From: Gemmatimonadales bacterium
Lineage (GTDB): Bacteria > Gemmatimonadota > Gemmatimonadetes > Gemmatimonadales > GWC2-71-9
Length of the DNA: 64,000 nucleotides
Direction: 5' to 3'
Assembly: GCA_044869265.1 (NCBI GenBank)
Contig: JBIOXD010000048.1
Location: 16,002 to 80,001 of the forward strand
The notes beneath the pieces are model-generated. The model saw only the letters and a list, made by a program, of their open reading frames with translations. It ran no database searches and had not been told where the DNA came from. Below, in pieces: positions 13,214 through 64,000 of this stretch (the first letter of the stretch is position 1; every line of letters begins with the position of its first letter). A program made the translations under genes and the position numbers.

Positions 13214-13296
13214 TGCCCGAGGAGAGAGTCGAACTCTCATGGGGTTGCCCCCGACGGATTTTGAGTCCGTTGCGTCTGCCATTCCGCCACTCGGGC
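13214..13296 (-). tRNA. tRNA-Leu (anticodon CAA), type II with long variable arm
   Basis: The reverse complement reads GCCCGAGTGGCGGAATGGCAGACGCAACGGACTCAAAATCCGTCGGGGGCAACCCCATGAGAGTTCGACTCTCTCCTCGGGCA. Acceptor GCCCGAG/CTCGGGC, anticodon stem ACGGA/TCCGT with loop CTCAAAA, T-arm GAGAG-TTCGACT-CTCTC. CCA is not encoded. A TATATT-like box lies ~10 nt upstream. Confidence 0.9.
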
Positions 13297-48867: not shown

Positions 48868-49626
48868 TCATTTTTTTAGAAACGCGTTCAGCGCCGTCCG
48901 GAAATCGGGCGTGCTGCGGCTCACAGCGTTGACATCGGCTCCCAGCCGTAAGCCTTCCTCGAAACCTAATCCGTCGAGCTGGTAGAACTGCTGCTTGGTG
49001 AATGCGAGCGCGGAGGGGCTCGCTTCGGCCAGCACGCGCAGCACCTCGCCAGCCTGCTCTTCGAAATCCGCGTCCTCATACACCCGCGACGCGAGCCCGG
49101 CCGCTGCGGCCTCCGTCCCATCGAGCAGGCGTCCCGTGGTCGCCAGGTCGAACGCGACCTTTTCGCCGACGGTGCGGCGCAGTATCGTCATCACGATCGC
49201 CGGCACGAAGTTGCGCTGGACCTCGGGATATCCAAACTGGGCCGATTCCGATGCGAGAATCAGGTCGCACGCCGTCGCGAGCCCGCAGCCGCCGGCCAGT
49301 GCCCGTCCCCGCACCAACGCGACGACGGGCTTGGGGAGGCGGCGCATGCGCATGAAAATCTGGGCGAAGTGCAGCGCCGCCTGCCGGTTTTGCTCGAGGG
49401 TTTGATCCGCGGACGCCAGCAGCTCGTTGAGATCCATCCCGGCGCAAAAGTCCCGGCCGGCACCGCGAACTGCAACGACCCGCACGCCGGCATCGAGATC
49501 GGCGCGCTCGAGCATGGCGAGCAGCGCGTCGATCATTGCCGTGTCGATGGCATTGCGCTTGTCCTCGCGGTTGAGCGTCGCCGTGAGAATGCCGCCGGCC
49601 ACCGCGACCAGGACGCGCTCGCTCAC
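48868..49626 (-). CDS. Enoyl-CoA hydratase/isomerase family protein
   Basis: 252 aa. LNREDKRNAI, RGAGRDFCAGMDL, VRGRALAGGCGLATACD. Confidence 0.88.
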   Translation of the reverse strand: MSERVLVAVAGGILTATLNREDKRNAIDTAMIDALLAMLERADLDAGVRVVAVRGAGRDFCAGMDLNELLASADQTLEQNRQAALHFAQIFMRMRRLPKPVVALVRGRALAGGCGLATACDLILASESAQFGYPEVQRNFVPAIVMTILRRTVGEKVAFDLATTGRLLDGTEAAAAGLASRVYEDADFEEQAGEVLRVLAEASPSALAFTKQQFYQLDGLGFEEGLRLGADVNAVSRSTPDFRTALNAFLKK

Positions 49627-50006
49627 CGGCCGACCTCGATTTCCATCCGCAGCAACGCGGTGGAAAACACTTTTCCCTGCGCATCGGTCTTCAATGACAT
49701 CGTGCCGCCGCCATCGAGCGCGCCGTGCAACAGAAAGTTCAGCGCGTTGAGATTGGGCAGCTCGAACCGCTCGACAGGACCCGTGATGATCCCCTGGAAA
49801 TGTTTAGCCACGCGTGCGGCCGTGACCTGTTTGACGAGCAGCGGGTAGTCCTCGGGTCTCAGGGCGATCAATCCGATGTTGGCAGTATCGCCCTTGTCAC
49901 CAGATCGCGCATGGGCAAGGTCGACCAGGCGTACTGTTCGCGACCGCCCCCCCCCGACCGCCGCCTTGGCTGGTTGACCGCGTGACCGCCGCCGTTGCCT
50001 CTTCAT
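49623..50006 (-). CDS. Small partner protein commonly encoded next to AtuA/DUF1446 genes
   Basis: 127 aa. [30 protein letters not shown]. 4-nt overlaps on both sides. Confidence 0.6.
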
Positions 50007-51391
50007 GCTTCCACGATCTCGATCCCTGGTTTCACCACTGTTCTGTCGATCAGCGCCGGCCAGTACGCGACGATCTCCTCGGGCTTCGGACGCCCACCGG
50101 CGAACCCGGTGACACTGGGTGGACCATTGAGAATCAACGGTGCGATTTCCCTGGTAAATCGGTCCACGGGCTTCTGGTCGGCTGCACGGACGCCGATACG
50201 CAACTGCACCTCGGGAATCTCGCTCGCCCTGTCGTCGACGTCCGCGAGCGCGAGAGCGCCGTGCGTCGCCGACGCGCCGACGAACTCCGTATGAATGGCT
50301 TCGAACTTGAGCCCCAGATCATCGAGCCGCTGGCGGAGCACACGATCCGCGGCCTGGGCCTTTTTCAGCGCGTCAGGCCAGGCGTACACGAGCGTCCCCA
50401 CGGCCTTGTAGCCATAGAAGTAGGCGATCGAGACTTTGAGTTTGTCTGTCGCAGGCTTCCCTCTGACACCTGACACCCGAACCCTATCCTTGCCCACCTG
50501 AGCCAGTTGGATAGTCGTAAAGTCCGCAATGCCATCGGGGGTGATGTACTCGCGCGGGTCTCCCATCTCATAGACGAGCTGCTCGGTTACGGCCGGCACG
50601 TCTATGCGGCCCCCCGTTCGGGGATGTTTGAGCAGCTCGAATGTGCCGTCGGCCTGTGCCTCGACAATCGGATAACCCACGTTGGCGAGGTCGGGAATAC
50701 GCTCCCAGTCGCGCAGGCAGTTTCCGCCGCTCGCCTGAGCGCCGCATTCGATGATATGCCCTGCCACCGTTCCAGCGGCGATCAGATCCCAGGCATCACG
50801 CGCCCACCCAAAGGCGTGCATCAATGGACCGAGCGTCAAGCCGGTGTCCGTGACGCGTCCCGTGATTACGACCTGTGCGCCGCGTTCCAACGCGTCCACA
50901 ACCGGCGCCGCGCCCAGATAGGCGTTTGCCGAGAGGACCCGATCGCGGACGTCGCGCAACGGCCGCCCCGTGTCCATGTTCGCGAGCTGGTGGCCCCGAG
51001 CGACGAGTCCGTCGAGCCGGTCGAGTAGATCGTCGCCTGTGACGACGCCGATCTTGAGCTTGCCGCGCAGCCCGAGCTTGCGCGCGACGTCGGCCACGGC
51101 GGCGGCGCAGGCACGGGGGTTCACACCGCCCGCGTTCGCCGTCACTCTGATCCCCCGCTCGACTACGATCGGCAGGATGCGCTCCACTTGCGTGACGAAG
51201 TCAGTGGCGTACCCCAGCGATGGGTCACGGGACTTTTGTTTCTGGAGGATGGACATCGTCACTTCGGCGAGGTAGTCGAGCATCAGGTAGTCGACCGGTC
51301 CACCCGTTACCTGACGGTAGGGTGCCTCCATCCAGTCACCCCAGAACCCCTGCCCGGCCGCGACGCGCACCGTCGCCGGTCGAGAACTCAC
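50003..51391 (-). CDS. Acyclic terpene utilisation AtuA-family protein (DUF1446)
   Basis: 462 aa. [11 protein letters not shown]...[17 protein letters not shown]-terminus is typical of AtuA/DUF1446. Confidence 0.7.
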
Positions 51392-54225
51392 CGCGGGCGT
51401 GCGGGGAGGGAGTGGGTCGACGGAGTCTCGATGCCGCTCGCGACCGTCGATCGCCGTGCCGCCACCGTCCCTGCCAGCGTCGTGACGCGCGTCTCGACCA
51501 GCGCCGCGAACCCTTCCGGTCTCTCGAACATGGGCGGGGTTGGCAGCCGCAGGACCGATCGCCCGCCTGCAACCACGGACAGCTCGCCGCCTTCGCCGAT
51601 GGGCTCATCCGGACCGAGGAACCGAACCTTGGCGGTTCCCTTCCACGAGTGTCCCGGCAGCCTGGCGAAGGCGGGGTACAGCTCGACGGTCAGCGGCGTC
51701 CCCTTCAGGTTTTCGGGCACCGATACACTCAGTCGCCCGAACGCGTAGTTCATCGGTTCGTTGCCGCCGCGCAGCTGCTGGCCCGCGGAGTCATACGCGG
51801 TAATGGAAAAGTCGGTCATCTCATCCCAGAGATCGGCGGATAGTTCGATATCGACTTCGAGCTGCTTCGCCCATCGCGGTGGCCGCACCTGAAGCGTTTC
51901 GGCCGGCTGGCCGCGGCCCTCGATCGCATACGATCGCTCGGCGCCCACGAACCGGTGGACGATCTGTCCGGTCACCGCGTTGGCTGCGCCCGTCACGACA
52001 CTCGAGGCCTCGAGAGACGGCTGCGCGGCAGCGAGCGCCACCGGCCCGAGATCGGCGCGGACGGTCACGGTGGCCCCCGTCAGCGGCGGCGCCACCACGT
52101 CGAGTTCGTAGACACCCGGCACCAGATCCTCGGCGCGCACGAGGATGGTCGCTGTTCCGTGCTGCTGTTGGCCGATTTCGATATCCTCGGGTGCCGATCG
52201 CGCCGGTTGCCCGTTCGGTTCGTACAGACGAACCGTCGCTTGCTGAGCCTGCGAATCGGGCACCGTCACAGTGGCACGCAGGGTCGCGCCGGATGGTGAA
52301 ACGCGCAGGAAGTAGCGTTGCACGGCGGCCGCTGCAATCGTCCGGCGTTCATCGAAGAGCACTTTCGTGGCCAGATCGACGGGCACAATCACCGTGTTGA
52401 CGAGCGTGAACAGTGGGCCGGCGAGCGTGTCGCGCGGATTGCGCGCCGTGACCGTGCCCACGTACATGCCCGGTGCGGCGAGCGCGCCGCGGTGGTAGAT
52501 GACGCTGATCTGTGTCGCGCGCGGGCCGGCGCTCACCGTATCATCGGTGACGAGCCACGGGACGTCGCTGCGCAGCACAAACTGTGCGGCGCGCCGGCCG
52601 GCGAGATGGCGGACCGTAAACGTCTCGACGGTATCCTGCGCGCCCGCGAGTCCATCGCGGCGGAACGCCGCTGAGGCTCCGGTGTGCGCGCGCACGCCGT
52701 AGGTCGCTCCCTGATGCCCGGCCGCAAGCCAGTCGTAGGCGGTCTGGAGGTCGGGCGACCCGGCCCCGCCGTCGATGACGCGCGCCGCGCCCAGGGGATG
52801 CGCCGACACGCGCAGCGCTTGCATGATCTCAGCCGCGCTCGCCGTGCGATTCTCCTGCGCGAGTCCGGATATCAGACAGGCGGCGAGGCCTGCCGCGTGG
52901 GGCGCTGCCATGCTCGTCCCACCCTTGATTTCGTTGCCCGTGTCCCAGCGCGGCACGGTCGAGTACGCGACGCCGGGCGTCACGAGATCGGGCTTCGCCA
53001 GCTCGCCGCCCCGCGAGCTGAACCACCCCAGCACGTCGCGGGCCGGCGGCCTGCCCTGCTGTGACGGCTGGGCGAAGACGCCCGGATAGACGGCCCCAAT
53101 CGAGAGCGCCAGGTCCGCCGAGCCGGGAAAGCCGACCGTCGAAAGGCCCGGCCCGTCGTTACCCGCGCTGATGGTGAAGACCAGGTCTGGATGCGCCAGC
53201 AAGAACGCGTCCACGATGGAATCGATGACGGCGCGTCCTTCGTGCTCGTTCCCAACGCCGAAGCTGAGGTTGAGGACCAGCGGGAGGTTGCGTTGCACCG
53301 CGTAGCGCGCGGCGTAATCCATCGCGCGCATCATGCTGCCGTGCACGGTGACACCGCCGCGCGCGTTGTTCGCGATCTTGAGGCCGATGATCTGGGCGCC
53401 GGGTGCGACGCCGTGGAATCCCGTCACGTCATACAGGTTGTAGCCCGCAGCGATGCCGGCGACGTGCGTCCCGTGTCCCGAGGTGTCGAAGTAGAGGTCG
53501 AGGATCGGGACGCCATCCGCCTCGCTGAAATTGGCCACGATGGTCAGCGGCTTCCGGCCGAGGGCGATCATCTCACGCCCCTGGCGGTAATCGTGCAGCG
53601 GCATTTCGTCCTCAAACGAGCCGTTGAGGTTCGTATCGAGAAATGCCGCCCAGCCGTCGGTCGCCTTCACCACGACGACGGGGAATTCGTCGGTATTGCG
53701 GCCGTTGCCGTTGACGTCCGCCGCCGGCGGCAGGCCCAGTGGCAGCTCCTTGAACGTGCCACGATACCACGTCGTCGCGGTGGTCAACCGCGCGATCCGT
53801 GCCGCTCCCTTCATCTCCGATTCCGTCGGGGCCGCAAACGCGGTGAGCGCAACACGCCCTTCGCCGGAGAAATCGCGCAGTTCAAGGACTTTGGGCGCGC
53901 CCGTGCTCGTCGTCACCAGTCCCGCCACGGCGGGGTCGACGCCGCTGTCCAGAATTGCGATGACCACCCCGCGCCCGTCGTACGTGGGATGCAGCCCGCG
54001 GAACACGTCGACTCCTGTGCTTTTGAGGGGCATCAGGCCGAGCATGTACGCGATCGGCGCATCGACCACGGGCTCGGACGGTCCCCCTCCGGTGCGCGTG
54101 GCGTCCGCGGGGGTCGCGGACACCGTGTTGGGCGTTGTCGGTGTGGGAAGCTCTTTGGGACCGATGGTCTTGGCGCCGCAACCGGCCGCGAGAGCGAGAA
54201 ACACAAGGGAGAATTGCTTGATCAC
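51388..54225 (-). CDS. Large S8 family serine peptidase lipoprotein (TPPII-like size)
   Basis: 945 aa, GTG start in a GTGA overlap. Lipobox FLALAAGC. Triad contexts [26 protein letters not shown]. Confidence 0.85.
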
Positions 54226-55793
54226 GTCGTACCCGGCAGAGCGAAGGCCCCGAGATGGGGGCCGGTGAATTCCGTTGACACCTCGAGGAGAAACGCGAGC
54301 GTATCGCGGGTTTCCTCGGGGGTGAGGATCGCATCGACAAAACCGCGCGCGCCGGCAAATCTGGCGTCGAGCTGGTGCTCGTAATCGGCCCGCATGGCTG
54401 CAACGGCGGCGGTGTTCTCCGGCTTGGCAGCGTCGCCGCCATATACCGCCTGGACGGCGGACTCACCTTCCATGACGCCCATCCGTCCTGTCGGCCAGGA
54501 GACGATGAAATCGGGGTCGAAGCCCTGCCCCGCCATCGCATAATAACCGGCGCCGGAAGCGTGATTGACGGTGAGCACCAGTTTTGGCACGGTCGCGGTG
54601 GCCATCGCTTCGACAAAACGCGCACCGGCCCGGATGATCCCTGAGTGTTCGGCCTCGGTCCCGACCATGAATCCCGAAACGTCTTGAATGAACAGTAGCG
54701 GCAGCCGCTCGCGGTCCGCGTTCTCGATGAAGTACGCCACCTTCTCGGCGCTCTCGGTGTAGATGATCCCGCCAATGCGCGGAGCTTCCCCCTTCTGCTT
54801 CGGCTTGATCACACCCCGCGAGTTGGCAATCACCGCGACTTGCCGTCCTTCGATGGCGCCGTGGCCACAAATCATCTCCTGCGCGATGTCCGGTTGGAAC
54901 TCGTCGAGACGGCCTCCATCGAGCAGCGCTTCCAGAACGGCCCGGACGTCGTAGCTCATGCGATGATCGACGGGGATCAAGTCGTACAGGGTCTTCGTGT
55001 CGCGCTTGGGGGCGGCGTGGGTGCGCCGTGCCCGGTGTTGGTGCGGGAGCCGACCCACGTACTCCCGAATGCGATCGAGACATTCCTGGTCGTCCTTGGC
55101 GCGATAGTGCGCGACGGCGCTCACCCCCGTATGGGTGCTCGCGCCGCCGAGTGACTCGGCGTCGACGACCTGACCGGTGGCGCCCTTGACCAGGTTGGGG
55201 CCGCCCAGCCCCATGAAGGACGTGCCGTCGACCATGAAGATCACGTCGGACAGCGCAGGCAGATACGCGCCTCCCGCGATGCAGGGTCCCATGACGGCCG
55301 CGATCTGCGGGACCTTGAGATAGCGCCGCATGATCGAGTTGTAGTAGAAGATCCTCGCCGCGCCGTATTGACCCGGGAACACACCCCCCTGATAGGGCAG
55401 ATTCACACCCGCCGAATCGACGAGATAGATAATCGGGATCCGCTGCCGCATCGCGATCTCCTGCGCGCGCAGGATTTTCTTGATCGTTTCCGGCCACCAG
55501 GAGCCGGCCTTGACGGTCGCATCGTTGGCGACGACGACGATGGGTCGGCCGGCGACGCGTCCGAGCCCGGTGATGACGCCGGCCGCCGGGGCCTGACCGT
55601 CGTACTGGTCGTGGGCGACCAGCAGGCCGATTTCCACCCACGGCGCGTCGCGATCGAGCAACGCGGCGATGCGCTCGCGCGCCGTCAGTTTCCCCTGGTC
55701 ATGCTGTCGTTTGATGCGGTCCGCGCCCCCGCCCTGTTCGAGGCGGGCGCGCAGCTTCTGGTATCCGTCGCTGAGGGACTTGAGACGACTCAA
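54222..55793 (-). CDS. Acyl-CoA carboxylase carboxyltransferase (beta) subunit, methylcrotonyl-CoA carboxylase-beta-like
   Basis: 523 aa. GKLTARERIAALLD, ANDATVKAGSWWPETIKK, VMGPCIAGGAYLPALSD. Confidence 0.85.
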   Translation of the reverse strand: MSRLKSLSDGYQKLRARLEQGGGADRIKRQHDQGKLTARERIAALLDRDAPWVEIGLLVAHDQYDGQAPAAGVITGLGRVAGRPIVVVANDATVKAGSWWPETIKKILRAQEIAMRQRIPIIYLVDSAGVNLPYQGGVFPGQYGAARIFYYNSIMRRYLKVPQIAAVMGPCIAGGAYLPALSDVIFMVDGTSFMGLGGPNLVKGATGQVVDAESLGGASTHTGVSAVAHYRAKDDQECLDRIREYVGRLPHQHRARRTHAAPKRDTKTLYDLIPVDHRMSYDVRAVLEALLDGGRLDEFQPDIAQEMICGHGAIEGRQVAVIANSRGVIKPKQKGEAPRIGGIIYTESAEKVAYFIENADRERLPLLFIQDVSGFMVGTEAEHSGIIRAGARFVEAMATATVPKLVLTVNHASGAGYYAMAGQGFDPDFIVSWPTGRMGVMEGESAVQAVYGGDAAKPENTAAVAAMRADYEHQLDARFAGARGFVDAILTPEETRDTLAFLLEVSTEFTGPHLGAFALPGTT

Positions 55794-55798
55794 CGGCG

Positions 55799-55826
55799 GT
55801 GCGTGGTGCGAGGTGCGTGGTGCGTG
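55799..55826 (-). repeat. 4 x 7-nt tandem array (GTGCGTG on the plus strand) in an intercistronic spacer
   Basis: GTGCGTG GTGCGAG GTGCGTG GTGCGTG occupies 28 of the 36 nt between the mutase small-subunit stop (55830) and the carboxyltransferase start (55793). Confidence 0.9.
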
Positions 55827-55829
55827 GGA

Positions 55830-56246
55830 TTAGACCGCGACATGATCCGCGGCCCATTCCTGGATGTACTTGATCAGATCCGCGGTCGGCGTGCCGGGTC
55901 CGAAGAGCTTGCCTGCGCCCTGGGCTTCGAGGGCCGTCATGTCTTCAGGGGGGATGATCCCGCCGCCGGTGAGGAGAACGTCCTGCCGACCTGCGGCATC
56001 GAGCAGTTTGCGCACCCGTGGGAACAGCGTCATGTGTGCGCCCGACAGGATCGAGAGGCCGACGACATCCACGTCCTCCTGAATCGCGGCCTGGGCGATC
56101 ATTTCCGGAGTCTGATGCAGGCCCGTATAGATGACTTCCATTCCGGAATCGCGCAGCGCCGCCGCCACAACCTTGGCGCCGCGATCGTGGCCGTCCAATC
56201 CCGGCTTCGCGACGAGAATCCGGATGGGACGGCGGCGCTTTCCCAT
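55830..56246 (-). CDS. Methylmalonyl-CoA-mutase-family B12-binding small subunit
   Basis: Start at ATG 56246 gives [28 protein letters not shown] (DxHxxG cobalamin motif). 138 aa. The longer ORF start overlaps the upstream gene and is Arg/Gly-rich. Confidence 0.9.
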
Positions 56247-57370
56247 CAGGCGCGGAAGCGCAGCAGCGCGGCCAGACCGTCCACGACCCGCCGGGCCTTG
56301 TCGTCGTAGAGGACGTCGACCTGTGCGCGTTGAGCCAGCGCGTCTTCCACCGCGTCGTCGATGCGCGCATCGTCGTCGTGCCCGTCGGCCAGAAGCGTGC
56401 GGACCTGTCCCCGGCTCAGCGCCTTCAGCGTCGCGTCCACGCCATTCACCGCCCATCCGCGCGGCGCGCCGTCCTTGACCGCGTCAGCGTGCGCGCGCTC
56501 CCACGCGCGCTCGCGCTCCTCGCGGAGCCCCAGCGTCGCCTCGCGGACCTCAGCGGGCGTCGCCTGCTTGGGGTTGAGCTTCACGACGCCGAATACCAGA
56601 TCGTGGACATAGGTGTGAAGGTGCGGGACGACGGCGCCGGCGTCCACACCAACGCTCCCGAGCACGATGCCGCTCAGCGGTTTCTCACGGTTCGTCTGGA
56701 AAATGCGATCGGCGATCTGCGCGTACAGCCGCTGCTTCTCGGTACGGATGCGTTGGTGGTAGTTATGCTCCCCCGCGCTGCCCGACGGCGTGCCCGCCCT
56801 GACCATCACCTGGCGCTGATGGCCGCCGTGGAACTTGCCGGCACGCGACGCATGGATGGCGGCCAGACCGGGCCGCTCGATGCAGTCGTAGGCCGTCACC
56901 TCGAAGAAGCGAGCTGCCGTGCGGTCGTACACGACCGTAAGGATCGTGCCGAACTCCTCCTCGAGGCCGAGCAGCTCGCGCACCAGCGGTTGATGGTCCA
57001 CGGCCAGGCGCGAGCGATGCACGTGCGGCAGCGGCAAGGTCTCGAACAGGCCCAGCTCGCGCGACGCGATGATCGCGAAGCCGCGGGCGCGCGGCAAATG
57101 ATTCGGCTCCTCGAGGTAGTTCAGGACCTGCCGCAGGCTGGCGGCGATGGCTTCGCGATCTTCGTGCGACAGCGATTGACGCGCGAGCTGCGCTTCCCGC
57201 TCGCGCACCCGATTCTTCATCTTGATGAGATACTTGCCACGCGTACGGTCGCGCGGCTCGAGCTTCAGATAGCAGGTGAGCACCCAATGACGGCCAGGCT
57301 CGATGGCGGCCAGGCGCGCAATCGCGGCCCGGGCGTCCTGCTCGGTAATTGCGGCGGGTAGAGCGCTCAT
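56246..57370 (-). CDS. eRF1-like (archaeo-eukaryotic release factor superfamily, bacterial baeRF-type) protein
   Basis: 374 aa. [13 protein letters not shown]...[23 protein letters not shown] parallels the eRF1 middle domain (KKHGRGGQSALRFARLR...). The C-terminus [20 protein letters not shown] resembles eRF1/Pelota domain 3. Confidence 0.6.
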
Positions 57371-57373
57371 GAT

Positions 57374-58936
57374 CTAGAAGAAAACGGGTTCGCGATATGC
57401 TCCCCAAACACGCTCCAGCGCGTGTCGGATTTCGTAGAGCGTGGCGTAGGCGCGCGCACAGTCCAGCATCGGCCCGATGACGTTCTGATCCGCCTCGGCC
57501 GCCTGGCGCAGCGCCTTGAGGCGGCGCTCGACCAGGGCGTTGTCCCGCTCGGCGCGCACACGGGCGAGACGGCGGCGCTGCTCCTCTTCGGCATCGTTGG
57601 ACACTTTCAGGATCTCGACCGGGTGATCGTCGTCGGACGGAAACTCGTTGACGCCGACGATGACCTTGTCTCCCGATTCCACCTGACGCTGGAAGGCGGC
57701 CGCGGATTGAGCAATCTGCCGCTGAAACCAGCCCATTTCGATCCCTCGGACGACGCCGCCGATCGCATTGATCTCGGCGAAGAGGGCTTCCGCTTCCCGC
57801 TCCAACTGATCGGTGAACGCCTCGATGTAATAGGAGCCGCCCAGGGGATCGATCACCTCCGCCACACCACTTTCGTGCGCCAGAATCTGTTGGGTCCGGA
57901 GCGCGACCTGCACCGACTGCTCGGTCGGCAGCGCGAGCGTTTCGTCCAGCGAGTTGGTATGCAGCGACTGCGTGCCGCCGAGGACCGCGGCCAAGGCCTG
58001 ATAGGCCACCCGGACGATGTTGTTGAGCGGCTGCTGTGCCGTCAGGGTGACACCGGCGGTCTGGCTATGGAAGCGCATCATCCACGAGCGCGGCTGTTTC
58101 GCCTTGTAGCGCTCGCGCATGTGCCGCGCCCAGATGCGCCGGGCGGCGCGCAGCTTCGCGATCTCCTCAAAAAAGTCGTTGTGAATGTCCCAAAAGAATG
58201 AAAGGCGTGCGGCAAACGTATCGATGTCGAGACCCCGGGCTATGCCACGTTCGACATACGTGAACCCGTTCGCCAGGGTGAAGGCGAGCTCCTGCGCTGC
58301 CGTCGCGCCCGCTTCGCGGATGTGATAGCCGGAGATGGAGATCGTGTTCCAGAGCGGGGTGTGCTGCGCGCCCCAGTCGAACATGTCGACTATCACCTTG
58401 AGCGCGGGCTCGACCGGATACACCCACGCGTGCTGCGCCATGTACTCCTTGAGGATGTCGTTCTGCACCGTGCCGCGCAGTTTGGCGATCGGCACGCCCT
58501 GTTTTTCCGCCGCCGCGACGTAGAAGCAGAACAGGATCGCCGCGGGCCCATTGATCGTCATCGACGTCGACACCTGGTCGAGCGGAATGCCGTCGAACAG
58601 GGTCTCCATGTCGGCGAGCGAAGAGATCGCTACACCGCACTTGCCGACCTCTCCTTCGGACCGCGGATGGTCGGAGTCGTATCCCATCAACGTCGGGAAA
58701 TCGAAGGCGACGGAGAGGCCGGTCTGGCCATGCTCGAGTAGGAATTTGTAGCGGCGGTTCGTGTCGGTCGCGCCGCCGAAGCCGGCAAACTGGCGCATCG
58801 TCCACACCCTGCCCCGATACATCGTGGGATGAATGCCGCGTGTGAACGGGTATTCGCCGGGTCGTCCGAGCTGTTTGTCGACGTCGAAACCGTTGAGGTC
58901 GGCAGGCGTGTAGACGGGCTTTTTCTCGATGGTCAT
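57374..58936 (-). CDS. Methylmalonyl-CoA-mutase-family large (substrate-binding) subunit
   Basis: 520 aa. [62 protein letters not shown]. Confidence 0.92.
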
Positions 58937-59952
58937 TTGCCGTTCCTTACCTTATTCAGGACTTCCGCAGCGACATCGTACGGGCTGCGCGTACCTGCGA
59001 CCACTTCATCCAAACGCTTGCTGACGAGATCTTCCGCGTCCGTCTCATCCCATACCCACTGCCGAATCGCTCGGTTCACGACGGCGCGGGTTCGCGCGGC
59101 CAGGCGACGCTTTCGTCGCTCGAGGAGCTTGCCGCTACGCTTCAGAAACTCGTGGTGCGTGTCGAGGGCGGCAACCAGGTCGGCGATTCCTTCCCCTTTC
59201 GATGCGACGGTCGTCAGGACCGGAGGCTCCCACATGCCGTCGCCGCCGCCTTTCCTCGCCGCCGCCGGGTTATGGTGCGGACGCACGTTGACGAACGCAT
59301 TCCCCTTCCGGATGCCCAGCATGACCTCGATCTCCTGGCGAAGCTTATCCGCTCCAGGGCGATCGCTCTTGTTGATCACGTACAGCTCGGCGATCTCCAT
59401 GACGCCGGCCTTGAGCGTCTGAATCCCATCGCCCGATTCTGGAACCAGTACCAGGACCGTCGTCTCCGCGGTTGCCGCGACGTCGAGCTCCGTCTGGCCG
59501 ACACCGACCGTTTCGATGAGGATCCGATCGAAGCCAACTGCCTCGAGGACATCCGCGACTTCCTCGGTCGTCGTCGCCAGACCGCCCTGCGCGCCACGCG
59601 TCGCCATCGACCGAATGAAGACGCCTGGGTCGAGGCTGACCGATTCCATGCGGATGCGATCGCCCAGCAGCGCGCCGCCGGTGAACGGACTGGTCGGATC
59701 CACGGCGATGACGGAGACTTTGCGGCCGCGCTCGCGATAGGCGCGCACGAGCTGCTCGGTGAGGGTGCTCTTTCCTGCCCCTGGCGGTCCCGTGATGCCG
59801 ATGCGATGCGTCGGTCGAACACCGACTTTCTTGTGCAGCTCCGCGAGCAGCTGCTCAAAGCCTTCCCGCTGATTCTCGACCATGCTGATCGCGCGGGCCA
59901 GCGCCGCCGCATCGCCGCGCTCCAGATCTGCGAGAAGGTCACTCGTCCGCAT
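58933..59952 (-). CDS. meaB: Methylmalonyl-CoA mutase-associated GTPase MeaB/ArgK
   Basis: Start at ATG 59952 ([14 protein letters not shown]). P-loop [23 protein letters not shown]. Confidence 0.9.
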
Positions 59953-60151
59953 CGTTCTCAAAGATAGCGGCCTTAAAGCAGGAGGATGGTACCCAGGCCG
60001 AGCAGCAGTCTCCTTGCGCACGACTTGCCAGGCGCGACCCTTGGGGAGCAACCCGAGCGCGACGTGCGCCGCAGGAACTCGCTCAGATTCTCCTGTCCCG
60101 CGAGCTCCTTCAGTTCATCGAGTCGTAAGTCAGGTTGATCTGCCGGATCGG

Positions 60152-61459
60152 TCACGTTCCCGTGCTCCTACCGCTCGTACTGCTCCGACCGCTGCTCTCG
60201 CCGCTTCCCCCGGTCCCACTCGACGCTCCTGCGCTGCCGGAGGCCGCTGCGCCGGTGCCGGCTGCTCCACCCAGCGCGATCGTCCGGACGGGGCCCGGCC
60301 GGACGGCGACACGCTCGACGCGGGTCGCGCTCGCCGCGAGCACATCGAACTCCAGCCCCTGATAGGAAAACCGCTCTCCCGCGCGAGGAATCCGGCCGAG
60401 TGCCTGGATCAAGAGACCACCCACCGTCTGCGGGTTGCTACCACTGGCTCGCAGACTCACACCGAGGGATTCGGCGAGGGCCATCGCCGGCGTGCTTCCC
60501 TCGACTTCCACGACACGTGTCGGAGAGGGCGCAGGCGTGCCGCTGCCTAATCCGGGCGTTTGGAACACCTCGCCCACGAGGTCCCGCAACAGATCCTCAA
60601 ACGTGATGAGCCCCGCAGTGCCGCCGAATTCGTCCAGCACCACCGCGAGATGTAAACCTCCACGCTGCATTTCGAGCATCAGGTCGGCGGAGCGTTTGCT
60701 TCCTGGAACACTGAGTGGCGGCCGCACGAGGACCGGGTCATCGGGTTGCCGTCCCAACAGATCCAACGTGTGTGCCACGCCCACGACGTCATCTAGCGAG
60801 CCCCGGTACACAGGGTAGCGGCTGTATCCGGACTGCTGGAGCACATGGGCCGCTTCGGCCGTCACCATTCCTTCGGGGAACGCGACGATCGCTGTGCGCG
60901 GAGCCATCAGCTCGCGGACGGGACGGTCGGCGAACGCCAGCACGCCCGACACGACGGCCATTTCGTCCGTTCCGGCCAAGGCGTCGGTTTCGGCTCCCGA
61001 CAGAAGAGCCGCCAAGGTAGTGCGCGTCGATGCATCTCGACGCGGAATGAACGGCGACAGGACCGTCCCCGCCCGTTCGAGCCAGGGTACCGCCCGGCTC
61101 ACGAGCGCCTCTGCCCACCGACGCCCCAGCACGCGGGGGACGAGGTAGGCCGCCCCGATGAACGTGGGGACGATGACCATCAGCGTGAAGATGCCGAGGA
61201 AGGTCGGCGTCGTCGCGGCGAGCAGCGCCGGGATTGCTCCCCCGGCCAGGAGCACGCCGAGGGTCGTCAACGTGTTCGAGGTCGCGAGCGTGCGGCCGGG
61301 GTTCTGCAGCAAGCCGGCCGTCACGCCGGAGCCGCGCAGCTTGTAGGCAACCCAGCGCGTGAGCTCGAGCTGGCTTACCGTGGCGGCCGCGACGCCGATC
61401 GCCGCCGACAGGCCGGCGAGCAGCAGTCCCACGAGCAGGACGACCAGCGCGACGCTCAT
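60152..61459 (-). CDS. CNNM/CorC/TlyC-family transporter (DUF21-CBS-CorC_HlyC) with Gly/Ser-rich tail
   Basis: 435 aa. N-terminal 4-TM DUF21-like region, CBS pair, C-terminal FEDLLRDLVGE... and F..QGLEFDVLAAS...VERV. Low-complexity tail GAAGTGAAASGSAGASSGTGGSG. Confidence 0.82.
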   Translation of the reverse strand: MSVALVVLLVGLLLAGLSAAIGVAAATVSQLELTRWVAYKLRGSGVTAGLLQNPGRTLATSNTLTTLGVLLAGGAIPALLAATTPTFLGIFTLMVIVPTFIGAAYLVPRVLGRRWAEALVSRAVPWLERAGTVLSPFIPRRDASTRTTLAALLSGAETDALAGTDEMAVVSGVLAFADRPVRELMAPRTAIVAFPEGMVTAEAAHVLQQSGYSRYPVYRGSLDDVVGVAHTLDLLGRQPDDPVLVRPPLSVPGSKRSADLMLEMQRGGLHLAVVLDEFGGTAGLITFEDLLRDLVGEVFQTPGLGSGTPAPSPTRVVEVEGSTPAMALAESLGVSLRASGSNPQTVGGLLIQALGRIPRAGERFSYQGLEFDVLAASATRVERVAVRPGPVRTIALGGAAGTGAAASGSAGASSGTGGSGESSGRSSTSGRSTGT

Positions 61460-62631
61460 CGCTTTTCGAACGACACCTGGGTCACACGCCGGCGATCCAC
61501 CCGCTCGACCACCACGCGATGCCCGTCGATCGTCAATTCATCACCCGGGCGGGGCACCCGGCCCAGCACCGAATAGACGAGCCCGCCAACGGTGGAGACC
61601 TCGGTGTGCGCGAAGGTGGCGCCGAGTGCCGCGGAGAGCTCGTCGAGACTGACGCTGCCGTCAACCCAGACCCGGGCGCCTTCATGGCGGATCGTCGGAG
61701 CGATGTCCGTGTCATGCTCGTCGCGTATCTCGCCGACGATTTCCTCGAGAATGTCTTCGCGCGTGATGAGTCCCGAGGTACCGCCAAATTCGTCCACGAC
61801 GATCGCGATATGCGCGGGTGTGGTTTGAAAGTCGCGCAACTGGTTGTCCAGGGTCTTGGTCTCCGGCACGAATGCCGCTGGGCGGATCAGCGTTTGCCAG
61901 CGAGTGCCCGGGTCGGCGAGACCCATGGCAATCGGCACGAGATCCTTGGCGAACACCACGCCCGCAACATTGTCCGGCGAGCCGTCGAGCACCGGAAGCC
62001 GGGTGTGCTGGCTTTGCCGGAATGTCTCGAGCACCTCGTCGTTGGAGGCGCTTAAATCGACGCTCGTCATGTCGAGTCGTGGCGTCATGACTTCGTCGAC
62101 GGTGGTATCGGCCAGCGTGAAGACCCCCAGCAGCATGTCGCGCTGCGCGATCCCGAGCGAGGGCTGGAGTGGCCGGGGTGTTTGGACCAGTATGTGGAGC
62201 CCGCGGTCCGCCCACGCCAGCAACCACAGGAGCGGGCCGAACGGCGCGAGGGTGCGGCGCGCGAGCGGAAGCGCGGCATCGGACAGCTCCGGGGCCAGAC
62301 GGGCCACGCTGCGCGGCAATGCATCGCCGATAACGAACAGGAGGAGGGTGCTGACCACGAGGGCGACCAACGCCGCGGCCCACGGCTGTGTCCACCACGC
62401 AACGGCAAACGCCGTCGCGACGGCGCCCAGCACGAGGAGCGCCAGACGGGCGACATGCAAGGCACGGTGCAGCGGCACGCGACGCTCGGCGGCCATGGGC
62501 GGGGCGTCGCCGAGTGTGTGGAGCGCCTCGCCGACCGCCGCTTCCTCCGCCAAGGCGAGCAGGGCGGACCAGATGGCAGCCCCCAGGGCCACCGCCAGCC
62601 CGATGAAGCGCAGCGCCGCTTCGGTGAGCAT
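61456..62631 (-). CDS. CNNM/CorC-family transporter, second paralog
   Basis: 391 aa. Same architecture (TM region, CBS pair, DEFGGTSGLITREDILEEIVGEIRDE, ...DGHRVVVERVDRRRV). 4-nt overlap with the downstream paralog. Confidence 0.82.
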   Translation of the reverse strand: MLTEAALRFIGLAVALGAAIWSALLALAEEAAVGEALHTLGDAPPMAAERRVPLHRALHVARLALLVLGAVATAFAVAWWTQPWAAALVALVVSTLLLFVIGDALPRSVARLAPELSDAALPLARRTLAPFGPLLWLLAWADRGLHILVQTPRPLQPSLGIAQRDMLLGVFTLADTTVDEVMTPRLDMTSVDLSASNDEVLETFRQSQHTRLPVLDGSPDNVAGVVFAKDLVPIAMGLADPGTRWQTLIRPAAFVPETKTLDNQLRDFQTTPAHIAIVVDEFGGTSGLITREDILEEIVGEIRDEHDTDIAPTIRHEGARVWVDGSVSLDELSAALGATFAHTEVSTVGGLVYSVLGRVPRPGDELTIDGHRVVVERVDRRRVTQVSFEKR

Positions 62632-63053
62632 TAGCGACTACGTAGCAGGCGCTGCACGTAACGCTCCTGCCGGCGCCACATCACGGACCGCGTACGACCG
62701 GGACCTTCGGGATGCTCGTAGCCGAGCACGTGCAGTGTGCCGTGAACCACGAGTCGGACCAGCTCTTCCTTGAGGCCGACTCCATTGCCCGCGACACGCG
62801 CCGCAGCCTGCGGGCAGATGTACACGTCGCCGACGAGTCGGCCGTCGGGCTGCGGCAGCGGATAGGCGATCACGTCCGTGAGGCCGCGTCGTCCCGTCGC
62901 GCGCCGATTCAGGCGACGCATGGCGACGGCGGATAGCAATGTGATGTCCACATGCGAATGCGCGGGCGCGCGTTCCCATGCCAGCACCCGTTGCGCGACA
63001 CGCTCGAGGCTAACGTGCCGCCGCCGGTTGCCAAGTCGCGCCGATGCCGCCAC
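62631..63053 (-). CDS. ybeY: rRNA maturation endoribonuclease YbeY
   Basis: 140 aa. Zinc motif HGTLHVLGYEH. The start may be an internal codon, since the annotated start overlaps the upstream gene by 44 nt. Confidence 0.88.
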   Translation of the reverse strand: MAASARLGNRRRHVSLERVAQRVLAWERAPAHSHVDITLLSAVAMRRLNRRATGRRGLTDVIAYPLPQPDGRLVGDVYICPQAAARVAGNGVGLKEELVRLVVHGTLHVLGYEHPEGPGRTRSVMWRRQERYVQRLLRSR

Positions 63054-64000
63054 TGGACTCCGGATAATCGATGCGGTTGTGGTACATCCCGCTGAGCACT
63101 ACCAGGAACGCCTGTTTCACCTGCTCGATCTGTTGCAGCGTGAGCGGTGCCTCATCGAGCTGTCCCGCGCTCACCTTGGTCCGGACGATATGATCGATCG
63201 CTTCCTCGATTTTTTGCGGCGTCAGGTCCTCGAGCACGCGCAGCGCCGCCTCGACCGAATCGGCGATCATCGCAATCGCGGTTTCCATGGACCGCGGCCT
63301 GGGCCCCGGATACATGAAATCCTCGGGTTTGCGCGGCTGTCCCCCGTCGATCTTTTTGGCCTTGTCGAGGAAGTAGGTGATCTCGGTCGTGCCATGATGC
63401 TCGGGAATGAAGGCGGCGACCGAGTCGGGCAGCTGGGCCTCCGCCGCCAGCGCGAGGCCATCGGTCACGTGCGCTTTGATGATCTGAGCCGACTGCAGCG
63501 GCTTCAACCGGTCGTGCGGGTTGTTGCCCGGAATCTGGTTTTCCACGAAGTACATCGGGTTCTTCACCTTCCCGACGTCGTGATAGTAGCAGCCGACGCG
63601 ACCGAGCAATCCATTCGCTCCGATACGGTTGCAGGCCGCTTCGACCAGATTGGCCATGGCCACGCTGTGGGCATACGTGCCGGGAGCTTCGAGTGAGAGG
63701 CGCCGGAGCAGCGGCCGGCTGGGGTCGGACAGCTCGAGCAGCGTCAGGTCGGTCGTGATGTGGGTGACCGACTCGGCGACGGGAAGCAGGAAAAAGGTGA
63801 GGCCGGCCGAGACCAGGCCATTCACGGCACCGAGCAGGCCGCGCAGCGCGATCTCTTCGATGCGCCAGCCGCCCGCGAGTCCCAGAGCGAGCGCGCCTGC
63901 GAGATACCCGGCGGCGATGATCAGCACGGGCGCGTAGAAGTTGCTGCGGCTCCGCAGGGTCCGCACGGAGAGCGCGGCCGTGACGCCGCCGACGATGCAC
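63010..64000 (-). CDS. 7TM-HD (PgpH/YqfF-like) HD-domain membrane phosphohydrolase; 5' end off window
   Basis: HD-domain motifs HSVAMANL, YYHDVGK, EHHGT. The frame stays open upstream of the listed start (..CIVGGVTAALSV..) to the window end. Classical position upstream of ybeY. Confidence 0.8.
   Translation of the reverse strand, partial: CIVGGVTAALSVRTLRSRSNFYAPVLIIAAGYLAGALALGLAGGWRIEEIALRGLLGAVNGLVSAGLTFFLLPVAESVTHITTDLTLLELSDPSRPLLRRLSLEAPGTYAHSVAMANLVEAACNRIGANGLLGRVGCYYHDVGKVKNPMYFVENQIPGNNPHDRLKPLQSAQIIKAHVTDGLALAAEAQLPDSVAAFIPEHHGTTEITYFLDKAKKIDGGQPRKPEDFMYPGPRPRSMETAIAMIADSVEAALRVLEDLTPQKIEEAIDHIVRTKVSAGQLDEAPLTLQQIEQVKQAFLVVLSGMYHNRIDYPESSGGIGATWQPAAAR

Follow-up and report, generated by a model that had tools for sequence, protein, structure and literature searches.

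The DNA analysed here is a stretch of 64,000 nucleotides (nt) from a Gemmatimonadales bacterium (assembly GCA_044869265.1, contig JBIOXD010000048.1, positions 16,002 to 80,001), referred to below as the window. On its minus strand, between the genes for the two subunits of a cobalamin (B12)-dependent acyl-CoA mutase, lies a gene for a protein of 374 amino acids (aa), here called X (56246..57370). The protein is a three-domain member of the archaeo-eukaryotic release factor 1 (aeRF1) superfamily and falls into its bacterial (baeRF-1) clade. On balance, we regard X as probably a Balon-type protein, which is likely to occupy the ribosomal A site in a non-hydrolytic manner and which was captured in a catabolic operon. 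Present annotations call genes of this kind either "hypothetical protein" or "peptide chain release factor subunit 1", and the second of these names is misleading.

Bacterial aeRF1 homologs were described in 2019 (Burroughs and Aravind, PMC6514570) and Balon in 2024, with stress operons as the genomic contexts (PMC10901736). In the family of X, the characterised function is ribosome hibernation by Balon: cryo-electron microscopy placed the Mycobacterium smegmatis protein MSMEG_1130 in the A site, and this protein inhibits translation about 15-fold (PMC10901736). The remark in the original prediction, which had been made from the DNA letters alone, that such bacterial homologs are mostly uncharacterised thus does not extend to the family of X. 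The word "mutase" occurs 0 times in the Balon paper (PMC10901736) and in the baeRF-1 paper (PMC6514570), the text supplements of the former list no Gemmatimonadota or Aquificae, and nothing relevant came up when we searched the literature for Balon or eRF1 in combination with mutase or MeaB. What appears to be new here is a Balon-family clade that lacks the C-domain hairpin and is fixed in a cobalamin-enzyme operon throughout the Gemmatimonadales.

Fold and family of X

The original prediction had recognised an eRF1-like protein by eye and had named profile searches and structure prediction as checks; both bear out this identity. Residues 128-280 of X match the Pfam models baeRF_family10 (30.8 bits, gathering threshold 27.1) and baeRF_family12 (27.7 bits, threshold 27.7). 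The first of these families also holds MSMEG_1130 (124.6 bits) and a deeper ortholog of X (L106, 53.2 bits), while Pfam places Psychrobacter urativorans Balon in family 3 and Rv2629 in family 2; the sequences of these three characterised proteins were rebuilt from printed alignments before the scan. When X was searched as a single sequence against the PDB sequences, nothing was retrieved, and a family profile was required for matches. The profile of an alignment of 52 family members (A1) gave full-length matches to MSMEG_1130 Balon (E = 2e-30), Rv2629 (9e-20), the archaeal aRF1 (4af1, 1e-19), P. urativorans Balon (2e-13) and Pelota (3j15, 2e-12). The hhalign comparison of A1 with MSMEG_1130 yielded a probability of 99.2%.

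The same alignment was the source of an AlphaFold2 model of X with a mean pLDDT of 88.4 and a pTM of 0.79. Its top Foldseek match in the PDB is MSMEG_1130 on the M. smegmatis 70S ribosome (8v9j_z, E = 1e-20, TM-scores 0.66/0.68), followed in order by aRF1 (E = 4e-17), P. urativorans Balon, eRF1 and Pelota/Dom34 (E = 1e-8 to 1e-10), and solely proteins of the aeRF1 superfamily and L7Ae/L30-like ribosomal protein folds were found. The model displays the three domains expected of the superfamily. The N-terminal domain (aa 1-127, 56990..57370) has a strongly conserved basic segment and lacks the NIKS stop-codon motif, the NIKS region of aRF1 falling on aa ~60-74 of X in the profile alignment. The RNase-H-like middle (M) domain (aa 128-280, 56531..56989) coincides with the region of the Pfam matches and contains a loop followed by a basic helix. 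The C-terminal domain (aa 281-374, 56249..56530) is L7Ae/Pelota-like and, just as had been predicted, has the fold of eRF1/Pelota domain 3.

Balon/MSMEG_1130 (8v9j, 8v9l) and X are thus both bacterial three-domain aeRF1 homologs of one Pfam family, both lack NIKS and GGQ, and in both the M-domain loop leads into a basic helix. They differ in that their identity is about 17-18%, and in that X has an invariant GE motif of its own together with a loop of variable length. With aRF1/eRF1, X shares the three-domain fold, the post-loop helix and domain 3, but not NIKS or GGQ; neither hallmark of a class-I release factor is present. Because both are lacking and nothing suggests a replacement of RF1/RF2 in this genome, X is not a termination factor, and baeRF-1 proteins have never displaced the bacterial RF1/RF2 (PMC6514570). 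Like X, the Vms1/ANKZF1-type VLRF1 proteins belong to the aeRF1 superfamily, as side branches of the release-factor fold that are bacterial or of bacterial origin. Unlike them, X has no Pfam match to VLRF1 and no conserved catalytic Gln loop, and it keeps the three classical domains.

Pelota/Dom34 also has this fold without GGQ and NIKS and, lacking a catalytic Gln, is a non-catalytic A-site binder, as is predicted for X. X could accordingly be read as a Pelota/Dom34-like rescue or splitting factor that enters stalled A sites and promotes recycling without hydrolysis, a role that Burroughs and Aravind proposed for baeRF-1 proteins (PMC6514570), and the Foldseek and profile matches to Pelota given above are in line with it. 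We hold this role to be unlikely. In both sequence and structure, Balon outmatches Pelota, whose similarity to X is also below that of aRF1; X has no counterpart of the Pelota loop A; and the partners of Pelota, Hbs1/aEF1alpha and ABCE1, have no bacterial equivalents linked to the gene. Moreover, the genomic contexts of other family members, with HPF, Hsp20 and universal stress protein (Usp) genes, favour dormancy over rescue.

These contexts were seen both within the phylum and beyond it. Seven Gemmatimonadota loci retrieved by the motif scan described below (32-37% identical to X) are paralogs at other sites, and in at least one metagenome-assembled genome (MAG) a paralog coexists with a mutase-linked copy (L089 and L101). 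The neighbours of the paralogs encode CBS-pair proteins, tandem Usp proteins, DUF302 and a DUF308/HdeD-like membrane protein. The neighbours of distant family-10 members encode Hsp20; a CBS protein; DnaK/GrpE with ferritin and an ECF sigma factor; and HPF/RaiA (Ribosomal_S30AE) with a cold-shock-domain protein. For Balon, neighbourhoods with RaiA, Hsp20, HdeD and Hrp1 have been reported (PMC10901736), so that the relatives of X stand in the very contexts known for Balon, that is, HPF/RaiA, Hsp20, CBS/Hrp1-like, HdeD-like and Usp. Furthermore, the mutase-linked clade and the stress paralogs have 58 highly conserved positions in common, among them R119, R121, D149, R150, R154, R176, F180, G200, E201, H205, R207, R214, G321, Q322, R324 and R371. 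Because of these common positions, the mutase-linked clade has probably retained the ancestral biochemical activity.

A different conserved pairing of the family was observed in the Aquificae, whose homologs (27-30% identical) have no mutase nearby and are partnered with an NYN-domain RNase gene. These loci (L119-L125) come from Hydrogenobacter, Thermocrinis, Sulfurihydrogenibium and Aquifex. At the four loci examined (L120, L121, L124 and L125), the X homolog belongs to baeRF family 12/10 and has a 31-aa loop, and a gene of ~200 aa lies directly 3′ of it, often with a 4-nt overlap; at L125, Pfam identified its product as an NYN-domain (PIN-like RNase) protein.

Linkage to the mutase genes and operons without X

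The original prediction called for a survey of whether homologs are repeatedly linked to mutase or meaB genes. Scanning one genome per species (GTDB) with X gave 147 relatives, of which the best 80 were examined. These are 62-95% identical to X, all belong to Gemmatimonadales MAGs, and in all 80 the gene order, as far as the contigs reach, is meaB, large subunit, X, small subunit, carboxyltransferase. Another 38 loci, all from Gemmatimonadota, came from scanning DNA with a degenerate form of the family motif PGWGExxYHNRI. At 31 of the 38, the gene lies between the large- and small-subunit genes; the encoded proteins are 42-54% identical to X and carry a ~30-aa two-Cys insert in the C domain, and the large subunits, where complete, are 74-79% identical to that of the window. 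In a more divergent metagenomic relative (P0127, 44%), the next gene again encodes a B12-binding subunit. All 111 orthologs with readable flanks (111/111), which come without exception from Gemmatimonadota and have 45-95% identity, adjoin mutase subunit genes, and they stand between both where both flanks are present. The linkage is thus conserved across the Gemmatimonadales.

The junctions are conserved as well. In the window, the large-subunit stop codon TAG (57374-57376) is separated from the ATG of X (57370) by the 3-nt spacer ATC (57371..57373), and the TGA of X (56246-56248) has base 56246 in common with the ATG of the small-subunit gene (56244-56246), the minus strand reading ...CGC GCC TGA TGG GA at this point. 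The extent of the 374-aa ORF and both junctions had been described correctly from the letters alone. Of 61 evaluable orthologous loci, 59 have 1-4 nt between the large-subunit stop and the start of X, and 48 have exactly 3 nt; the one-base TGATG overlap was found in 33 of 33. The dN/dS values of X (0.06-0.19) are like those of meaB (0.07-0.19), the mutase subunits having mostly 0.02-0.10, and they indicate purifying selection. Since intact orthologs occur in 111 other genomes and evolve under such selection, X is a real gene, and a pseudogene or a chance ORF can be rejected.

A position of this kind might reflect a function for the enzyme itself. The original prediction suggested a factor coupled to assembly of the split mutase, and X could in principle have been co-opted as an accessory that acts as an assembly scaffold, associates with the MeaB GTPase, or protects or regulates the enzyme once its cofactor is loaded. 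The invariable location between the subunit genes speaks for this role, as do the 1-4-nt spacer and the TGATG overlap, which imply near-stoichiometric co-translation, the 68 positions conserved only within the mutase-linked clade, and the loss of the EF-Tu hairpin site in the subclade of the window. There is also a parallel in the operons for glutamate mutase, whose S and E subunit genes flank an accessory gene (mutL/glmL). X resembles mutL/glmL in its position between the genes for a B12-binding and a catalytic subunit; it differs from them in that its fold and family are unrelated and in that it is missing from a number of orthologous operons.

The latter were revealed by a scan for the conserved C-terminus of the large subunit (YREPVFF) with the small-subunit motif KPGLDGHD within 30-60 nt downstream of it. 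At 18 Gemmatimonadota loci, meaB, the large-subunit gene, the small-subunit gene and the carboxyltransferase gene follow one another, with the subunit genes adjacent and no X. We grouped the loci by large-subunit identity with average-linkage clustering, so that the number of independent losses is approximate. One X-less locus, L135, falls inside the tight cluster of the window itself, its large subunit being 94% identical to those of X-bearing neighbours; six (L127-129, L136, L137 and L142) are nested among X-bearing clusters, L133 and L140 stand beside the deep X-bearing clade, and seven form an outgroup. Thus, with the operon staying intact, X disappeared on at least two or three occasions, or some lines did not acquire it in the first place. 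The junction of L135 is clean (TAG, 4 nt, then ATGAGC...), and no X-like locus from this genome is among the best 80 of the 147 relatives, where a copy of X at the ~75-85% identity to be expected here would have had its place, MAG incompleteness being a caveat. The small subunit of L135 starts with ATGAGC (MS...; L135 2760-2800), the same start as that of X in the window, and this common start suggests a deletion that fused the start region of X to the small-subunit gene.

X is therefore no obligatory companion of the mutase, and an essential mutase subunit can be rejected. Because 18 orthologous operons do without X, including one from the midst of close relatives, X is unlikely to take part in assembling the mutase, and the idea of a coupling to split-enzyme assembly is contradicted by the very operons in which the subunit genes adjoin. 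Against co-option as an accessory also stand the family-wide basic helix and the other residues common with the stress-linked paralogs, which X has kept, and its lack of likeness to any known B12 chaperone, adenosyltransferase or reactivase. Finally, the conserved position is the weaker sign of a functional tie because the whole neighbourhood of ten genes is syntenic across the order. All in all, we consider an accessory role even less likely than a rescue function.

The M-domain loop and the GGHQ peptide

The M domain of the model comprises a strand (163-170), a long loop (171-196, with pLDDT <50 at 184-192) and a long helix (197-229). Two family-invariant motifs delimit the loop: R-x-G-(K/R)-F-H opens it, and G-E-x-x-(Y/F)-H-x-R-I-R-x-E-K closes it and runs into the helix. 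In X, the opening motif is R176-A-G-K-F-H181 (56828..56845), which is conserved family-wide and which hhalign sets opposite "RAGQ" of MSMEG_1130. The closing motif starts with the invariant G200-E201 and extends as a basic helix to residue 216 (56723..56773); no other motif is as well conserved across the family, and its counterpart in eRF1 is the helix after GGQ, a 16-aa stretch of X aligning with eRF1 SALRFARLRMEKRHNY. The by-eye alignment of the original prediction had paired this region with the eRF1 M domain around the GGQ loop. The loop and the following helix (eRF1 SALRFARLRMEKRHNY) were matched rightly, and the quoted peptides are all present; what did not hold is the placement of the GGHQ peptide (residues 182-185, nt 56816-56827) at the position of GGQ.

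GGHQ lies in the low-confidence loop of variable length and is no conserved motif. Measuring the loop as the stretch between FH and GE, we found it to span 3-23 aa in the close orthologs (n = 74), with a Gln among the first four loop residues in 60 and no loop Gln in 13. In the deeper mutase-linked orthologs (n = 31), the loop (GDQxGPGW) has 8 aa in 30 cases and 9 aa in one, with an early Gln in 27 and no Gln in 4; in the stress-context paralogs (n = 7), it has 9 aa (SDRxDAPGW) and in all seven no Gln, early or otherwise. Among the close orthologs, G-G-x-Q occurs in 18/74 and the exact GGHQ in 1/74, namely in the window protein only. Neither profile alignment hits residues 182-185 or finds a Gln of X at the catalytic position: in the HMMER alignment, the GGQ of aRF1 stands opposite the family P-G-W, that is, G197-S198-A199 of X, and in the hhalign alignment, "RAGQ" of MSMEG_1130 stands opposite R176-A-G-K179. 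For these reasons, namely its occurrence in one ortholog, the unconstrained loop length, the absence of Gln from some orthologs and the alignments that point elsewhere, we rejected GGHQ as an equivalent of the catalytic GGQ. Such baeRF-1 families, with unconstrained loop length and without a catalytic Gln, were inferred by Burroughs and Aravind to be catalytically inactive (PMC6514570).

A broader version of this idea is that X is an active peptidyl-tRNA hydrolase which uses the loop Gln, be it Q185 in GGHQ or the Gln of GDQ in the deeper orthologs, irrespective of the exact motif. A Gln follows soon after (K/R)F(H/R)G in 83% of the mutase-linked orthologs, KFHGGHQ and RFHGDQS are alignable with KKHGRGGQS of eRF1, and baeRF family 10 was singled out by Burroughs and Aravind as Gln-retaining and possibly catalytic (PMC6514570). 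Nevertheless, hydrolysis is the least probable of the alternatives weighed here. The loop Gln is missing from 17 of 105 mutase-linked orthologs, which are scattered inside the window's own cluster and are otherwise conserved; the Gly-Gly context is confined to the 18 close orthologs just mentioned and occurs in 0 members of the deep clade, which has GDQ; Q185 is off the GGQ position, and a codon-reading motif of the NIKS type is absent. Besides, the family-10 protein that has been characterised, MSMEG_1130, acts in hibernation and is not a hydrolase (PMC10901736).

The operon and the probable role of X in it

The cluster that houses X opens with meaB (58933..60051, minus strand), which encodes the G-protein chaperone of adenosylcobalamin (AdoCbl)-dependent mutases (Pfam MeaB, 298 bits; TIGR00750, 330 bits, over the cut-off) and whose stop overlaps the start of the large-subunit gene by 4 nt. 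The large, substrate-binding subunit (57374..58936, minus strand, 520 aa) is of the split IcmA/HcmA type (Pfam MM_CoA_mutase, 747 bits), and its nearest solved structure is HcmA (4r3u, E = 1e-167). The small, B12-binding subunit (55830..56246, minus strand, 138 aa) matches Pfam B12-binding at 89.9 bits and TIGR00640 at 175 bits. These matches agree with the earlier assignment of the flanking genes as meaB and two mutase subunits. The longest ORF for the small subunit has 208 aa (55830..56456) and, in a different frame, extends over the 3′ end of X; since residues 7-9 of the 138-aa version are where the Pfam and TIGR00640 matches set in and TGATG recurs at all evaluable loci, the true start is likely to be the ATG at 56246.

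The next gene encodes the carboxyltransferase (beta) subunit of an acyl-CoA carboxylase (54222..55793, minus strand; Pfam Carboxyl_trans, 438 bits), which is syntenic at every locus with sufficient flank. It is followed on the same strand by the genes for an S8 peptidase of 945 aa (51388-54225), AtuA (50003-51391) and an AtuA ferredoxin-like protein (49623-50006). The eight same-strand genes from meaB to the latter (49623-60051) are joined by 4-nt overlaps or gaps of <40 nt, and the stretch looks like one long operon that is syntenic across the order. The S8 peptidase gene, which lies between those for the carboxyltransferase and AtuA, represents a second insertion into the operon; at the X-less outgroup loci L131, L132, L141 and L143, AtuA directly follows the carboxyltransferase. 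Upstream of meaB (60152-63966, minus strand) are genes for two CorC/CNNM-type CBS proteins, the rRNA-maturation endoribonuclease YbeY and a 7TM-HD protein, a common cluster that is syntenic in related loci too. The order-wide neighbourhood thus reads YbeY, CorC, meaB, large subunit, X, small subunit, carboxyltransferase, S8 peptidase, AtuA, AtuA-ferredoxin.

The sole Rfam match in the whole window was a tRNA gene (13214-13296, minus strand), so that neither a cobalamin riboswitch nor another regulatory RNA was detected around the operon, and in a promoter/terminator consensus scan of 49500-60400 the counts were not above those of shuffled controls. The PADLOC models of anti-phage defence had no match, and X as a defence gene was rejected.

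As to the enzyme, its large subunit reads RQFAGFG where methylmalonyl-CoA mutases (MCMs) have RQYAGFS (the Tyr89 site, at which the 5req chain has F), EYMAQHAW where MCMs have EFMVRNTY (the Arg207 site), and SVAFD where HcmA has STDFD. Judged by this alignment, it is not a canonical MCM. Phe and Gln at the sites compared with MCMs are what we take to be a signature of the isobutyryl-CoA mutase (ICM) type, an assignment made from the alignment of the large subunit; a literature search for published ICM/HCM specificity residues gave nothing usable. Isobutyryl-, pivalyl- and isovaleryl-CoA are candidate substrates. With its ICM/HCM-type mutase, carboxylase beta subunit, AtuA and large secreted-type S8 peptidase, the operon looks like one for the catabolism of branched-chain acyl-CoA and for nutrient scavenging.

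How X came to this place and what it does there can be outlined as follows. Most probably, a stress-linked Gemmatimonadota paralog was duplicated, and the copy would have been inserted between the genes for the ICM/HCM-type mutase subunits early in the radiation of the Gemmatimonadales. Since then, X may have been inherited vertically in a stable operon of meaB, large subunit, X, small subunit, carboxyltransferase, in part S8 peptidase, and AtuA. Given the 3-nt spacer on one side and the TGATG overlap on the other, X is presumably co-translated with the mutase subunits, and so it would be made whenever the operon for branched-chain acyl-CoA catabolism is on. By binding the ribosomal A site without hydrolysing peptidyl-tRNA, X would silence the ribosomes and protect them. 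Such a factor may be advantageous just at the time when a scavenging operon is expressed, the co-expression thereby providing the right timing.

Several observations weigh against this Balon-type interpretation. We infer, rather than observe, that the Gemmatimonadota members bind ribosomes. Judged by the NCBIfam equivalog models, X scores 42.8 bits with the MSMEG_1130 family (NF052288, cut-off 480) and 23.8 bits with the Rv2629 family (cut-off 320); as it stays far under the equivalog cut-off, it is a distant relative of MSMEG_1130 and not its ortholog. A stress neighbourhood was found for the paralogs and the distant relatives only, X itself, unlike Balon, being situated in a mutase/carboxylase catabolic operon and translationally coupled to both subunit genes. 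The early loop Gln (2-4 residues past FH) is present in 87/105 mutase-linked orthologs and in 0/7 stress paralogs; it is clade-typical but dispensable, and a Balon-type function does not explain its clade-specificity. The strict retention of X between the subunit genes could mean a functional tie that goes beyond inheritance.

A further difficulty concerns the C domain, where the ~30-aa insert of Balon is deleted in X between aa 329 and 335 (A1 columns 409-442), so that in the model just 5 residues lead from strand 323-329 to helix 335-346. The window protein has this deletion in common with its clade at ≥62% identity. An insert of ~30 aa (a beta-hairpin or a degenerate Zn ribbon) is kept at that site in the deeper mutase-linked orthologs and in MSMEG_1130, and the Balon authors describe the C-domain beta-hairpin, which X lacks, as highly conserved and EF-Tu-binding (PMC10901736). 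Some distant members (P0233) have a full CxxC...CxxC zinc ribbon there, and the deep mutase-linked clade has a two-Cys remnant. The series of zinc ribbon, two-Cys remnant and absence looks, on these sequences, like a stepwise decay at the EF-Tu hairpin site of Balon.

There is also the doubtful but more consequential possibility, to which we give about as little weight as to the rescue function, that the placement is no frozen accident. A Balon-type A-site factor might have been coupled to the operon in such a way that ribosome silencing follows the flux of catabolic expression, or the aeRF1 fold might have been re-used as a regulator or partner of the MeaB-mutase system. The semi-conserved loop Gln, the 68 clade-only positions and the loss of the EF-Tu hairpin in the subclade of the window would then be the marks of such a new role.

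X is of moderate interest, which proof of a functional link with the mutase would raise. If X is indeed what we think it probably is, a whole bacterial order keeps a Balon-type factor in a cobalamin-enzyme operon, translationally coupled to both subunits of the enzyme. Should it act on the mutase, this would be the first non-ribosomal job of the release-factor fold. Should it silence ribosomes, it would clearly exemplify a hibernation factor whose expression goes with one particular catabolic pathway, unlike those that accompany general stress genes, and it would also be a natural variant without the EF-Tu-binding hairpin, which would help to clarify the role of this element.

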